DNA from: Candidatus Heimdallarchaeota archaeon | GTDB lineage: Archaea > Asgardarchaeota > Heimdallarchaeia > Heimdallarchaeales > Heimdallarchaeaceae | Direction: 5' to 3' | NCBI GenBank assembly: GCA_023705905.1 | Contig: BPTK01000004.1 | Location: forward strand, 1-32,000 | Length of the DNA stretch: 32,000 nucleotides | Part shown: positions 1 through 29,267 of the stretch, piece after piece | Layout of the letters: every line of letters begins with the position of its first letter | Position numbering within the stretch: position 1 is the first letter of the stretch | Program-made: the position numbers and the translations under genes | Notes under the pieces: generated by a model | Seen by the model: only the letters and a program-made list of their open reading frames with translations | What the model was told of the DNA's origin: nothing | The model's database searches: none

Positions 1-5132
<5,132 letters not shown>

Positions 5133-7654: not shown

Positions 7655-8134
<480 letters not shown>

Positions 8135-8167: not shown

Positions 8168-8348
<181 letters not shown>

Positions 8349-8370
8349 CAAAAGAAAAGAAAATAGATTG

Positions 8371-8431: not shown

Positions 8432-8457
8432 CGAAATGTTTATGCTGAGATACTCAA
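8432..8457 (+). repeat. Left copy of the bipartite direct repeat, a partial copy of the tRNA-Ser upstream region plus its first 14 nt
   Basis: The sequence is cgaaatgttta immediately followed by tgctgagatactcaa. The same two blocks occur at 10528-10538 and 10570-10584, separated there by 31 nt. Confidence 0.8.
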
Positions 8458-8534
8458 ACGCATGAAATGAAGCTAGTCTACATTAGACACTGCTTGAAGG
8501 GATTACTCCCAAACCCCTCACATGCGTTGAGGGG
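8438..8534 (-). ncRNA. Putative omega-RNA (reRNA)-like scaffold plus guide of the TnpB-like gene
   Basis: On the minus strand: a 7-bp hairpin CCCCUCA-ACGCAUG-UGAGGGG (8534-8514); GGGA-GUAA-UCCC (8510-8499), a GNRA loop; and the tnpB-like stop at 8485-8483. CAUGCGU (8464-8458) is complementary to the first hairpin's loop, making a pseudoknot candidate. It is directly followed by UUGAGUAUCUCAGCA. Confidence 0.4.
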
Positions 8535-10471
8535 GAATTATTATGAATAACTTTTGCTCCTTTCTGAGCTATGTTCTTGGCCGCATTAATATGAGTATTT
8601 ACCCTTTTATTGCATTTTTTACAAGGTGCATAATCATAACTTGTAAACCCTCTATCTAATGTACCACCACATTTATTGTGGAGTCTACTTGTGTTTTGGG
8701 GGTTAACTAATACGAGTCTTACTATCCTAGTGGATAGCATTGATGCTATTAGAACTGCTTTCTTAAAAATCTCCAAATCATCAGGCATATTATAAATCGC
8801 CTTAGCTAAGGCACCTTTTTTTCCTCGGGCACTAATCTGTAAATTTTCAATGCATAAGTATTGGCTTTTGTTCTGAATTATGACTGCCGCCAAGAAATGA
8901 GGTAATTTGTTCTTTATTTCTTTGAGTAATCGAGCTCTTCTTGCATAAACCCGTTTTAATTCTCCTCTAATCTTACAATAACCATATGTATCCTTTTGCT
9001 TTCCTTTTATTGCTAGACTTATGTGCAATGATCTAATTTGGTTTTTAGTTAAAGAATGATACTCCTTTGATAGTTTAATCAAATCACGAGGAATTTTTAC
9101 AGGATAATTGAAGGCAACCATATGCTCGCTGAGTCGATTAATGTCTACTCCCATAATAGTAGAGTTATTCAAAGGAATGTTTCGCATATATTGTACAGTT
9201 AATTTCGTACTAATGAAACATTCAGAGTTTCCTTCTAAAACCACTTTCACATTTGGTTTATTACTTGGAGGAATACCACTTTCAATTTGAAGAACCTTAA
9301 TCTGGGCACCATTTTTCAAGAAATTTCTCACTTTCTTTGGGAAGAGTAGAGATGCTGTAAGTTTTGAACGATTTTTTGAGGGAAAACCCAACTCAAATTC
9401 ACCGTTATTTATAGCTAGATTTGTCATAATCTCTGCATTTCCCGGTCGAGTAATCACATATTTTTTGTTCATCATAAGTTTGATAGGCAATTTACCTCTT
9501 TTTTTCTTAAAGGGCATTGAAATGAATTCTTCAGGATTTGAAGCCTTTAACATTTTAAGTACAGTCGTCCATAAGTGAGGGAAGAGTGCGAAAATAATTA
9601 TCAGTCTTAAAGTTGAAAATAATTTTCTGGATTTATTTCCTAAAACTATTGCTAGCTCAGAGGATAATAACTTGAGGCTTTTCCATCTTGATGTTTGTTG
9701 TGTGTTAATCCAAGAAGTAAGGTATGAAGCTACTAAGCTTTTATTGCTTAATATAAGATGTAATTTTCGTAGAAATGCGTTTTGTTTATCGGTTAGTTTA
9801 GATAGTTTGGTGAACTCATCTAATTTGTTTTCATAAGCGTCACTGATCGCTTGTTCAACTTCATAATGAGTTACTAGTGGAAGGAAACTGTTAAACTTCA
9901 ATTGGTGTTTTCTATAGATATTAGGAGATTTCTTTCTCCAATATGAATCAACTTGTCTACGAGTGCTCGTAAGAAGATTAAGAACCCAAATATACTTGCT
10001 TTTCCATTTGTCGCTAAATTTACTCTCAGTATAAGGAGAACGACCAAAAACAATCCATTCAATCGCTTGTTGAGGATTTTTCATCCAATAGATGAAGAGC
10101 TGATTTATTTTGCTCTCTTGATTTAACCTGTTTTTTAAACTTACAAAGAGCCAATGAAAGGCGCTTTCAGCTATATTTGGGCTCTTTCCTATTGTTTTGC
10201 TTAATTTGCTTCGAGGATATAAATCATGAGGGTTTTCACGACATATGTTTAGTGCAGTTTCAACAGTTCTCTTATCGAGCAATTGTAATTGATCTTCTTC
10301 TAACTCCCTTATTCTTTGATTTATTGCATCACGGTGTTCGGAATTCAAGAATTTCAAAGGCAAAGAATATGTTTTTGAAACTATTGTAGAACTAGATGCA
10401 ATTTGATACAACTTGAAAACCTTCTTCATACATATATCTGACAAATCATATATAAAGTAAGTAAAAATCAT
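8483..10471 (-). CDS. TnpB/Cas12-like RNA-guided nuclease homolog (662 aa) with an enlarged N-terminal/REC-like region and an atypical RuvC-III motif
   Basis: RuvC-I is MGVDINRL (D443, codon 9145-9143). RuvC-II is LCIENLQ (E542, codon 8848-8846). A zinc-ribbon-like HNKCGG...CKKC follows, then NTHINAAKNIA, where TnpB proteins have D-x-NAA-x-NI (H627, codon 8593-8591). The D-E and E-H spacings are about 99 and 85 aa. An alternative ATG is at 10429. Confidence 0.8.
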   Translation of the reverse strand: MIFTYFIYDLSDICMKKVFKLYQIASSSTIVSKTYSLPLKFLNSEHRDAINQRIRELEEDQLQLLDKRTVETALNICRENPHDLYPRSKLSKTIGKSPNIAESAFHWLFVSLKNRLNQESKINQLFIYWMKNPQQAIEWIVFGRSPYTESKFSDKWKSKYIWVLNLLTSTRRQVDSYWRKKSPNIYRKHQLKFNSFLPLVTHYEVEQAISDAYENKLDEFTKLSKLTDKQNAFLRKLHLILSNKSLVASYLTSWINTQQTSRWKSLKLLSSELAIVLGNKSRKLFSTLRLIIIFALFPHLWTTVLKMLKASNPEEFISMPFKKKRGKLPIKLMMNKKYVITRPGNAEIMTNLAINNGEFELGFPSKNRSKLTASLLFPKKVRNFLKNGAQIKVLQIESGIPPSNKPNVKVVLEGNSECFISTKLTVQYMRNIPLNNSTIMGVDINRLSEHMVAFNYPVKIPRDLIKLSKEYHSLTKNQIRSLHISLAIKGKQKDTYGYCKIRGELKRVYARRARLLKEIKNKLPHFLAAVIIQNKSQYLCIENLQISARGKKGALAKAIYNMPDDLEIFKKAVLIASMLSTRIVRLVLVNPQNTSRLHNKCGGTLDRGFTSYDYAPCKKCNKRVNTHINAAKNIAQKGAKVIHNNSPSTHVRGLGVIPSSSV

Positions 10472-10527: not shown

Positions 10528-10584
10528 CGAAATGTTTAAATTTTTACTGTAATCATTGAACAAAGAACGTGCTGAGATACTCAA
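10528..10584 (+). repeat. Right copy of the bipartite direct repeat, overlapping the promoter region and 5' end of tRNA-Ser
   Basis: Block cgaaatgttta is at 10528-10538 and block tgctgagatactcaa is at 10570-10584. The second block comprises the base before the tRNA plus tRNA nucleotides 1-14. Confidence 0.8.
10535..10542 (+). promoter_or_regulatory. TATA-box-like element upstream of tRNA-Ser
   Basis: TTTAAATT lies about 30 nt upstream of the mature tRNA 5' end. Confidence 0.35.
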
Positions 10585-10653
10585 GTGGTATGAGGGTGGA
10601 TTGCTAATCCATTGTCACTAGACTCCCGGGTTCAAATCCCGGTCTCAGCTCCA
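10571..10653 (+). tRNA. tRNA-Ser (anticodon GCU), class II with a long variable arm and genomically encoded CCA
   Basis: Manual fold: acceptor GCTGAGA/TCTCAGC; D-arm CTCA-AGTGGTA-TGAG; anticodon arm GTGGA-TTGCTAA-TCCAT (anticodon GCT); variable arm TGTCACTAGACTC; T-arm CCGGG-TTCAAAT-CCCGG; then T-CCA. Confidence 0.92.
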
Positions 10654-26948: not shown

Positions 26949-27494
26949 ATGCCAGAAAAAACTCATCGAGAAAAGATTGAGAGAGTTAGAGAACAAAACA
27001 GTATATTGTTTAAAAAATCTCCAAATTCCCCTCTTACTCATGAACAAAAACTTGACTTCAAAGAACTATCTTATTTTCCAATAGATAAAAAATATGAGTT
27101 CATTGTTGAAATGAAGAAATTTAGTAGTCAAACTCAAATAACTATTCCAACAACTACAGGAAATAATAAAGAGTATATTCGTTTTGGCTATATCGAATTT
27201 GAAATTGATGGTCAGATGAATACTCTCACCGTTCTTAAACCAGTTGAAGGCGATTATTTCTTCCTTCCGTTCAAAGATACAACCACTGGAACAGAATCTT
27301 ACAAAATTGGGAGATATGTGGAGATAGAAAAAATATCGAAAGAGAAGTGGCTAGTGGATTTCAATACTGCTTACAATCCTTTATGTGCATATAATGACAA
27401 TTGGGATTGTTCTCACACACCTGACGAGAATATTCTCAAGATTCCAATCCTCGCAGGTATGAAGATTTACCCGGATTATAGAGGGGGACACTAA
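26949..27494 (+). CDS. DUF1684-family protein
   Basis: 181 aa. The sequences FKKSPNSPLTHEQKLDFKELSYFPID, FLPFKDTTTGTESY and DFNTAYNPLCAYNDNWDCSHTPDENIL resemble DUF1684 as I recall it. Confidence 0.6.
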   Translation: MPEKTHREKIERVREQNSILFKKSPNSPLTHEQKLDFKELSYFPIDKKYEFIVEMKKFSSQTQITIPTTTGNNKEYIRFGYIEFEIDGQMNTLTVLKPVEGDYFFLPFKDTTTGTESYKIGRYVEIEKISKEKWLVDFNTAYNPLCAYNDNWDCSHTPDENILKIPILAGMKIYPDYRGGH

Positions 27495-28721: not shown

Positions 28722-29267
28722 ATGAAGACTAAAACATATGAAGAAAAAATAATGGAAAGACGAGTAAGATACAATAAATCTTTCAAGAACTCTCCTCATT
28801 CTCCTTTACTTGAGGAGCAAAAAGAAGATTTCAAAGAATTAGAGCAATTTCCCATAGATGAAAAATACCGCATAACGACTCAATTCATAAAAAACGACAA
28901 TCCAGAAGAAATAATAATTTCAACATCCAAGGAAGAAGAGTGAAGATATATTCGTTATGGATTCATTGTTTTTGACATTGATGGCGTAGAAAATAGATTA
29001 ACAATTCTGAAACCACCAACGGACGACTATTTGTTCCTACCTTTCAAAGACAAGACTACTAGAGTAGAATCATATAGAGATGGTAGATATGTTGAAGTTG
29101 CATTGCTTACTAATAATGATATTATAGTTGATTTCAATACTTCCTACAACCCCCTTTGTGCATACAACAATAGATTCAATTGCACCAGAGTTCCTACAGA
29201 GAACATTTTAGAGGTAGCAATACCTGCAGGGCAGAAGATATTTGGAGATTATAGAACAGCAAATTAG
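28722..29267 (+). pseudogene. DUF1684-family paralog interrupted by a single in-frame TGA (28941-28943)
   Basis: Track ORFs 28722-28943 and 29031-29267 are in one frame. Reading through the TGA gives ...STSKEEE*RYIRYGFIVFDIDGVENRLTILKPPTDDYLFLPFKDKTTRVESY..., colinear with the 26949-27494 paralog. Confidence 0.6.

Follow-up and report, generated by a model that had tools for sequence, protein, structure and literature searches.

A 32,000-nucleotide stretch of a Candidatus Heimdallarchaeota genome (positions 1 to 32,000 of contig BPTK01000004.1, assembly GCA_023705905.1; 'the window' in what follows) carries a gene for a large TnpB-like protein that, together with its leader and a 3′ scaffold segment, constitutes an element inserted in a tRNA-Ser(GCT) gene between nucleotides 14 and 15. 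The best explanation, and one held with a little more confidence than doubt, is that this is an RNA-guided homing element specialised on the tRNA-Ser gene. The context, i.e. insertion in a tRNA gene with the displaced end of the tRNA in the position of the guide, is of greater interest than the protein variant; the protein is of a described kind, belonging to a large Asgard-wide TnpB branch with an Asp-to-His replacement in RuvC-III.

The interruption is seen by comparison with related contigs in which the locus is empty. A metagenome scan seeded on a neighbouring 5S-like RNA gene (dealt with below) yielded seven contigs (L085-L091), and in five of these (L085, L087, L088, L090 and L091) there is no TnpB-like gene. 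These have the ancestral order, in which HypE is followed by tRNA-Ser and its promoter, and the 5S-like gene comes some 80 nt further on; the guide sequence is contiguous with the remaining tRNA. Filled loci are those of the window, of L089 from the same scan and of L002/L003. Alignment of filled and empty loci places the element at the junction of tRNA nt 14 and 15. Past the scaffold come the displaced nt 14-1 with the native promoter, and on the opposite side the tRNA is completed by an additional native-like copy of about 58 bp, made up of nt 14-1, the spacer and the promoter box. It is because five related contigs show the locus empty that both the position of the element and the origin of its guide, as the displaced 5′ end of the tRNA gene, can be specified. 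Within the window, 8443-8457 and 10570-10584 are an exact repeat (15/15), the 11 nt beyond the guide (8432-8442) recur in the tRNA-Ser promoter region, and 8432-8457 with 10528-10585 are the two arms of a direct duplication, about 58 bp long, between which the element lies. The promoter copy on the right side is complete in L089; 31 nt of it are gone in the window, and about 20 nt in L002. None of the guides of 48 copies from the mobile 'crown' clade of the same family, introduced below, matches tRNA-Ser(GCT) as well as the window guide does. In one of the empty sites, that of L091, the tRNA-Ser(GCT) gene (some 290-400 nt upstream of the 5S-like gene) has an insertion of about 20 nt beside the anticodon loop, a probable archaeal intron that other tRNA-Ser copies do not have.

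Occupancy does not follow relatedness of the flanking sequence. Over the marker that extends from the promoter to the 5S-like gene, L002 (filled) shares 93% identity with the empty L088 and L091 and only 87-89% with the filled window and L089, and the occupants of filled tRNA-Ser sites are 55-77% identical to each other. Such interleaving of filled and empty states suggests repeated gain or loss at one site, not a single ancient domestication. An ancient, immobile and vertically inherited gene had been considered in view of the synteny with L002 (flanking orthologues 56-80% identical, the gene itself 55%), and was dropped with the empty sites and interleaved states. Pairing of the guide with the neighbouring 5S-like RNA was also considered and dismissed, the complementarity being of just 7 nt.

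Neighbour clustering, which covered 62 loci of the family, gave a single recurrent neighbour, a protein of about 196 aa encoded on the same strand some 50 nt upstream in 13 loci. Its MerR helix-turn-helix (HTH; PF00376) and resolvase catalytic domain (PF00239, E 1e-20 to 1e-24) in all 13 identify it, by domain content, as an IS607-type serine recombinase TnpA. Neither an integrase nor Cas1 recurs among the neighbours of the 62 loci, the only recurrent mobility gene being this serine recombinase, and no CRISPR arrays or cas genes were detected across 80+ loci. The 13 TnpA-linked loci all belong to one crown clade, 70-92% identical, with many copies per genome in unrelated contexts, and in a midpoint-rooted neighbour-joining tree this crown is nested among deep single-copy lineages. 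Most copies of the family, that of the window included, are without TnpA. Within the crown clade pairwise DNA similarity stops about 64 nt past the stop codon (40-89 among the pairs listed), the final 85 nt or so before this boundary are more conserved than the coding sequence, and the flank beyond is unrelated between copies. With its sharp boundary, conserved last stretch and unrelated flanks, this end is built as TnpB right ends are, the flank providing the guide.

All clades, the window copy included, have in common a scaffold with a hairpin (S1), a pseudoknot, two more hairpins and a CTTCAT motif. The pseudoknot joins the S1 loop (CGCAYRY) with the 7 nt directly before the boundary, and it is exactly at the scaffold boundary that DNA similarity ends in the mobile clade. 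Pairing across 33 aligned sequences, drawn from all clades, amounts to 98% in S1 and 93.5% in the pseudoknot, as against 38-50% in slid controls, and five of the seven pseudoknot pairs vary on both sides, the variants including CGCACGT/ACGTGCG, CACACGT/ACGTGTG, TGCACGT/ACGTGCA, CGCATAC/GTATGCG and CACATAC/GTATGTG. At the level of sequence, then, the family has what is expected of a system of the OMEGA type (for obligate mobile element-guided activity), namely a structured 3′ RNA of tnpB that ends at the element boundary and is followed by a variable guide. At gathering threshold Rfam detected only tRNA near the gene, and neither RAGATH-18 nor HEARO.

The tRNA-Ser case has counterparts. Other deep lineages stand beside other stable-RNA genes (the loci are included in the table below), and in every one of them the 15-20 nt or so after the scaffold resemble a segment of the adjacent stable-RNA gene: for tRNA-Cys this is the D-arm, for tRNA-Asn the T-arm with the 3′ end, for tRNA-Pro the end of exon 1 at the intron junction (13/13) and for 23S rRNA the sequence that follows it (15/15). 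Most of these matches exceed those of all 48 null guides. At crown-clade loci a tRNA is almost never present. Copies linked to tRNA-Asn and copies linked to tRNA-Cys both occur in each of JAGXNV, DAOVET and JAUWPI. In the Cys clade tRNA-Cys(GCA) is 45-75 nt downstream of a guide that mimics the tRNA-Cys D-arm, there are 2-6 mismatches or a 2-nt insertion between this guide and the D-loop of the adjacent tRNA, and the guide is perfect against the tRNA-Cys of other genomes, e.g. 17/17 for the L068 guide against the L072 tRNA; the adjacent tRNA may be a cleavage-resistant rescue copy. No remnant of the 3′ part of tRNA-Cys was found upstream of the Cys-clade genes, and a sense 15-mer resembling nt 2-16 of tRNA-Cys is present about 125 nt upstream in four loci of that clade only. 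L007 has, 45 nt upstream of the gene, an exact 17-nt copy of the 3′ end of tRNA-Leu(TAA) (L007:5889-5905) and an intact tRNA-Leu(TAA) (7983-8113) 38 nt past the scaffold, so that direct repeats of the tRNA 3′ end bracket the element in a manner reminiscent of attachment (att) sites. The guide of L083, ATGGAAATTGGTTCG, is present in exact copies at L083:177-191 and L083:7966-7980, its source beginning upstream, 4 nt after the 23S 3′ end; these repeats are 5.8 kb apart, with a 905-aa membrane protein that has a C-terminal zinc-finger-like motif encoded in the interval. The same 905-aa protein is also a conserved upstream neighbour in the tRNA-Cys clade. L025 was tried as an empty site for the Asn clade, with flanks too diverged for use.

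Table 1. Features of the element, its target and its surroundings; positions are those of the window unless residues or other loci are specified.
Feature	Position or loci	Strand	Remarks
TnpB-like open reading frame (ORF)	8483..10471	(-)	662 aa as listed; 648 aa from likely start Met15
RuvC-I D443 codon	9145-9143	(-)	
RuvC-II E542 codon	8848-8846	(-)	
RuvC-III H627 codon	8593-8591	(-)	
Zinc ligand H598	8680-8678	(-)	
Zinc ligand C601	8671-8669	(-)	
Zinc ligand C617	8623-8621	(-)	
Zinc ligand C620	8614-8612	(-)	
Helical REC-like block	residues ~44-316		~270 aa; AlphaFold2
3′ part of omega-RNA-like scaffold	8458..8537	(-)	overlaps ORF end; ends ...GCTTCATTTCATGCGT at 8458
Hairpin S1	8514-8534	(-)	CCCCTC/GAGGGG
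Pseudoknot	8521-8526 + 8459-8464	(-)	S1 loop CGCATG + CATGCG
Hairpin S2	8499-8510	(-)	
Hairpin S3	8476-8488	(-)	
Guide position / right-end flank	8443..8457	(-)	TTGAGTATCTCAGCA; reverse complement of tRNA-Ser(GCT) nt 1-14 + one preceding base
Promoter-region remnant of original tRNA-Ser	8432..8442	(-)	TAAACATTTCG; adjoins guide after 31-nt spacer deletion
Left-side target copy	10528..10585	(+)	promoter box CGAAATGTTTAAA, 31-nt spacer, tRNA nt 1-14
tRNA-Ser(GCT), intact	10571..10653	(+)	divergent from TnpB-like gene; 5′ end 100 nt from ORF start
Candidate target of window guide (putative)			TTGAGTATCTCAGC(N6)
tRNA-Cys(GCA) neighbours	L055, L057, L059, L060, L067, L068, L070, L072, L084		
tRNA-Asn(GTT) neighbours	L058, L064, L065, L066		
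Intron-bearing tRNA-Leu(TAA) neighbours	L007, probably also L006 and L009		
tRNA-Pro(TGG) neighbour	L063		
23S rRNA 3′ end neighbour	L083		
Probable 5S rRNA homologue, circularly permuted	8168-8349	(-)	same position in eight other loci: L002, L085-L091
gyrA	1-3079	(-)	
gyrB	3021-5123	(-)	
Direct repeat, 43 nt	27352-27394 / 29125-29167		81% identity

The protein is of TnpB/Cas12 architecture. Pfam gives PF07282 (Cas12f1-like TNB) at 29.1 bits, above the gathering score (cut-off 26.3), the NCBIfam guided_TnpB model covers residues 402-637 (E 6e-10), and with phmmer and the family profile the C-terminal 140-200 residues align to the Cas12f structures 8hr5, 9nzq, 7c7l and 7l48. In these alignments E542 (within CIENL) corresponds to the catalytic Glu, H598 to the first Cys of the zinc ribbon, and H627 (NTH627INAAKNI), in all four, to the catalytic Asp of NADxNAAxNI. 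From the D-E-D triad of TnpB and Cas12, D443 and E542 are thus kept and the third position is His627; the TNB/OrfB zinc ribbon between RuvC-II and RuvC-III is present with HCCC in place of C4 ligands. An AlphaFold2 model with 41 homologues as input (predicted local distance difference test, pLDDT, 84.6; predicted template modelling score, pTM, 0.71) shows a single strand (30-37), then an all-helical block without interruption, then the WED/RuvC strands. All 41 Foldseek matches at E<=0.001 are Cas12f/h/k/m/g/X/lambda, CasX, ISDra2 TnpB (8h1j) or Fanzor2 (9b0l), and by this similarity the split RuvC fold with a WED/REC N-terminal part is that of the TnpB/Cas12 superfamily. Since alignments with homologues begin only at residue ~24-31, and the model shows disorder over residues 1-27, the listed ATG (10471) appears over-extended by 14 codons and Met15 (ATG 10429) is probably the true start, the family norm being 642-651 aa. 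An identical protein encoded on an independent Logan contig, and the equal length of over 100 homologues, show that the ORF is not an artefact of assembly. The initial annotation of the window had proposed the TnpB/Cas12 architecture, the His at the third RuvC position, the His as first zinc ligand and a REC-like helical expansion, all of which are borne out. Its further remark, that the gene is accompanied by neither tnpA nor a CRISPR array, is correct for the window (no array, and no TnpA by tblastn), but the absence of TnpA is only local given the IS607-type gene upstream in 13 family loci. The most informative feature, the tRNA-Ser 5′ end in the guide position, had escaped that annotation.

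By word-indexed search 125 homologues were obtained at 40-56% identity, nearly all of 620-655 aa and, where named, from Heimdallarchaeota; species-representative genomes hold 122 relatives, with up to 10 or more copies per metagenome-assembled genome (MAG). Conservation of the site is close to absolute: in a 121-sequence alignment D443 is found in 121/121, E542 in 117/118 and H627 in 114/114, and the zinc ligands H598 and C601 each in 116/116, C617 in 114/115 and C620 in 113/114, with many N-terminal Trp and Arg residues likewise invariant or nearly so. An exhaustive profile search extended this to 456 cluster representatives at E<1e-3, mostly of 600-830 aa, and HxxC...CxxC-x(3-4)-VNTHxNAA is present in almost all that extend to the C-terminus. 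Superfamily members that are named come from Heimdall-, Hermod-, Odin-, Hel- and Promethearchaeota, i.e. all are from Asgard archaea. With the motif near-universal across the superfamily, the His is a fixed trait and no lesion, and the D-E-H triad with its HCCC ribbon is, on these counts, a fixed trait of an Asgard-archaeal branch of TnpB (OMEGA) proteins. Some giant relatives (P0143, P0154, P0171, P0180 and P0183, 1,200-1,780 aa) have the His-variant TnpB module as their C-terminal part, and one close relative is from an Odinarchaeota MAG.

Whether such a site cuts is a separate matter. The ratio of nonsynonymous to synonymous substitution (dN/dS) is 0.10-0.16 in the crown (mobile) and the deep (tRNA-linked) clades alike, and with the three positions invariant a nuclease-dead enzyme appears unlikely, as dead sites drift. 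In other RNase H-fold nucleases His serves as a metal ligand or catalytic residue, as in the Argonaute DEDH tetrad and Cas9 H983, which lends plausibility to activity with D-E-H. From this analogy DNA cleavage by the D-E-H site is plausible but unproven.

For the homing element that is favoured here, a transcript running from the 3′ end of the gene into the flank would yield an omega-RNA with a guide running antisense to the beginning of tRNA-Ser. The D-E-H protein with this RNA would recognise and cut element-free tRNA-Ser alleles, and repair from an element-bearing genome copy would restore or spread the element, in restorative or horizontal homing for which TnpA would not be needed. The second target copy of about 58 bp keeps the tRNA gene intact. 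Restorative homing by TnpB is established for IS605 and IS607 (review PMC13565253). A conserved tRNA gene, as a durable and universal target, would explain selection on guide and protein, and homing would explain that it is sustained without TnpA. A more general proposal is put forward tentatively, being rated somewhat short of an even chance: that OMEGA homing elements independent of TnpA exist as a set in Heimdallarchaeia, one stable-RNA gene per lineage, with a displaced piece of that gene as guide, a duplication or variant copy that keeps the RNA functional, and an active D-E-His nuclease.

Several considerations weigh against homing on the tRNA-Ser gene. The intact tRNA-Ser gene of the window is identical to the guide over 15 nt, so that an active nuclease should recognise this gene as well, unless discrimination is provided by positions 16-20 or by a target-adjacent motif (TAM). 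From the left-end flanks of TnpA-bearing copies, which are merely AT-rich, no TAM consensus emerged, and none is given by the bases 5′ of the tRNA matches as these differ between clades. Co-variation of guide and tRNA amounts to one position between the window and L002, and is absent from the Cys clade, whose guides have 2-6 mismatches to the adjacent tRNA. The tRNA-Ser gene of L002, with its native promoter, is inverted relative to the window and the empty sites (L002:4555-4770), and a 6-nt relic of the old tRNA 3′ end, TGGAGC, remains beside HypE, making for a history more complex than one clean insertion. To our knowledge no D-E-H TnpB has known cleavage activity. The omega-RNA is a predicted one. 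Lastly, canonical IS607 features are absent: IS607 elements normally have GG ends and insert at GG without a target-site duplication (TSD) (PMC13565253), whereas the right end of this family is ...GCGT (ACGTGCGT) with AT-rich left flanks, and the window copy is inside a tRNA gene and bracketed by a duplication of 15 nt (58 bp in full).

A different reading, thought unlikely, is that the protein has been domesticated as a binder or regulator, its cleavage lost by the Asp-to-His change and its tRNA-derived guide tuning tRNA-Ser transcription in the manner of TldR or Cas12m. A guide that spans tRNA nt 1-14 beside the promoter would suit this, as would a window copy without TnpA and in conserved synteny with L002, strong purifying selection, and the retention of the guide segment among positional homologues in several clades where the sequence that follows it is not kept. 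TldR, Cas12k and Cas12m are also comparable to the window copy in the lack of TnpA and in guides that match a host gene near its promoter. However, these proteins lose catalytic residues at the very positions, D443, E542 and H627, that are invariant in the present family in fixed copies and even in TnpA-linked mobile ones, and it was in view of this, and of the dN/dS values, that the TldR-like nuclease-dead binder of the initial annotation came to be thought improbable. Filled/empty polymorphism among close relatives is in addition atypical of a housekeeping regulator, and Cys-clade guides do not follow the adjacent tRNA.

No more probable is that the gene is cargo or a remnant in a larger tRNA-targeting element, mobilised by an integrase or, casposon-like, by an Asgard Cas1, with the repeats, of 14-17 bp or longer, being att sites or TSDs and TnpB having no role in the choice of site. 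Casposons and integrases do target tRNA genes and leave direct repeats. Direct repeats of tRNA or rRNA ends indeed bracket loci of the window (15 nt), of L007 (17 nt) and of L083 (15-20 nt, 5.8 kb apart with genes between), and Asgard Cas1-TnpB elements have been reported (Altae-Tran 2023, PMC10691335). But the serine recombinase is the only mobility gene to recur in the 62 neighbourhoods, the window repeat adjoins the scaffold end exactly, as at a TnpB right end, and the duplicated segment is a native one of about 58 bp rather than a TSD of 14-15 bp.

Distinctly less probable again is addiction of a cleave-and-rescue type, in which the nuclease would target the wild-type tRNA gene and the element keep or supply a functional copy beside itself, making loss of the element lethal. 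That an intact tRNA is always beside the element, and that the adjacent tRNA of the Cys clade departs in the D-loop from a guide perfect against tRNA-Cys of other genomes, would accord with it. The identity of the window guide to its adjacent tRNA over 15 nt does not, and element-free genomes are viable. Very improbable is a TnpB-to-Cas12 or Fanzor intermediate, for which the initial annotation had allowed on account of the large size and REC-like expansion and for which the closest solved structures, those of Cas12f, might also speak, or a decaying pseudogene: CRISPR arrays and cas genes are absent from the window and related loci (80+), the Glu is canonical and not of Fanzor type, ORFs are intact with dN/dS ~0.1-0.16, and proteins of this size are the norm throughout the Asgard superfamily.

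Comparison with known systems brings out where homing of this kind would be distinct. Likeness to IS607 TnpB/OMEGA resides in the TnpB fold, the MerR-HTH and resolvase TnpA directly upstream in 13 family loci, the scaffold overlapping the tnpB 3′ end, a guide that is the DNA past the right end, and the prevalence of TnpA-less copies; the differences are a protein of ~650 aa (not ~400), D-E-H (not D-E-D), an HCCC ribbon and deep clades each tied to one stable-RNA gene. The His substitution is not new, an Asp-to-His clade being already published. This is RIIIr-4, a major TnpB clade with RuvC-III Asp-to-His, without a C4 zinc finger and predicted to be active (Altae-Tran et al. 2023, PMC10691335), whose described members include RHH/MazE-linked euryarchaeal and crenarchaeal genes and viral genes (PMC10691335). 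H627 and the non-C4 (HCCC) finger make the present family similar, the likeness being in the described features; 'tRNA' has 0 occurrences in the main text of that paper (PMC10691335). Cas12f proteins (CnCas12f1 8hr5, AsCas12f 8dzj, Un1Cas12f1 7c7l) are the best matches in structure and sequence, with RuvC/TNB motifs that align residue for residue, yet in the present family neither a CRISPR array nor a tracrRNA accompanies the protein, the REC is larger and RuvC-III has His. The adjacent array and/or cas1/2/4 of type V CRISPR-Cas are not there, no arrays and no recurrent cas neighbours having been found. In Fanzor, which has eukaryotic or giant-virus hosts, the RuvC-II Glu is relocated to ~6 residues before the zinc finger, in contrast to E542, which is 56 residues before H598 in the canonical position, and all named homologues are from Asgard archaea. 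Use of a stable-RNA gene as a safe and universal landing site is shared with the homing crRNA of V-K CRISPR-associated transposons (CASTs), which have a dedicated guide matching a tRNA gene, with tRNA-targeting integrases, casposons, homing endonucleases in archaeal rRNA introns and IStrons. Unlike V-K CASTs, integrases, casposons and homing endonucleases, the presumed effector here is a TnpB-type protein alone, and the tRNA gene is interrupted with a duplication restoring it.

The 5S-like gene that served as seed for the scan merits comment in its own right. It has all canonical 5S motifs (CATAG, loop C CTCATTCCGAAC, AAGTTAAG, loop E GGTACT/GGGAAC and loop D CGAGAG) in permuted order, the 3′ two-thirds coming first, then helix I with a UUCG-type tetraloop cap and then the 5′ third. 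The new termini are in an extra 10-bp helix, CCTAGTAAGG/CCTTACTAGG, and there is an extra hairpin. The Rfam 5S model scores the permuted gene at only 16 bits, and RNAalifold with 9 sequences gives a three-way junction in which 5 pairs have compensatory changes. Prediction of a 5S rRNA gene was unsuccessful for closed genomes of Heimdallarchaeum (Wu et al. 2022, PMC8813620), and a permuted 5S-like gene may be what explains its apparent absence; no paper on permuted archaeal 5S was found. Elsewhere in the window are gyrA and gyrB, and a 43-nt direct repeat (Table 1). The window GyrA aligns to its L002 orthologue in two blocks, of 444 and 136 aa, which suggests that the window copy holds an intein-sized insertion.

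Site-specific homing to stable-RNA genes is known for homing endonucleases, integrases and V-K CASTs, and no report of it for TnpB was found; nor does the literature searched describe TnpB lineages that are linked to tRNA genes, occur as occupied and unoccupied alleles and come with a duplication that restores the tRNA gene. The filled and empty alleles make it testable that OMEGA systems may persist as site-specific homing elements without a transposase, with conserved RNA genes as targets. If the D-E-H site is catalytic, the chemistry of Cas12 and TnpB would be wider than appreciated and a compact archaeal effector of ~650 aa would be at hand. If homing itself is as proposed, it would amount to a natural RNA-guided gene drive into tRNA genes, with cleave-and-rescue features possible in the tRNA-Cys lineage, and such a drive would be operating in the archaeal group closest to eukaryotes.

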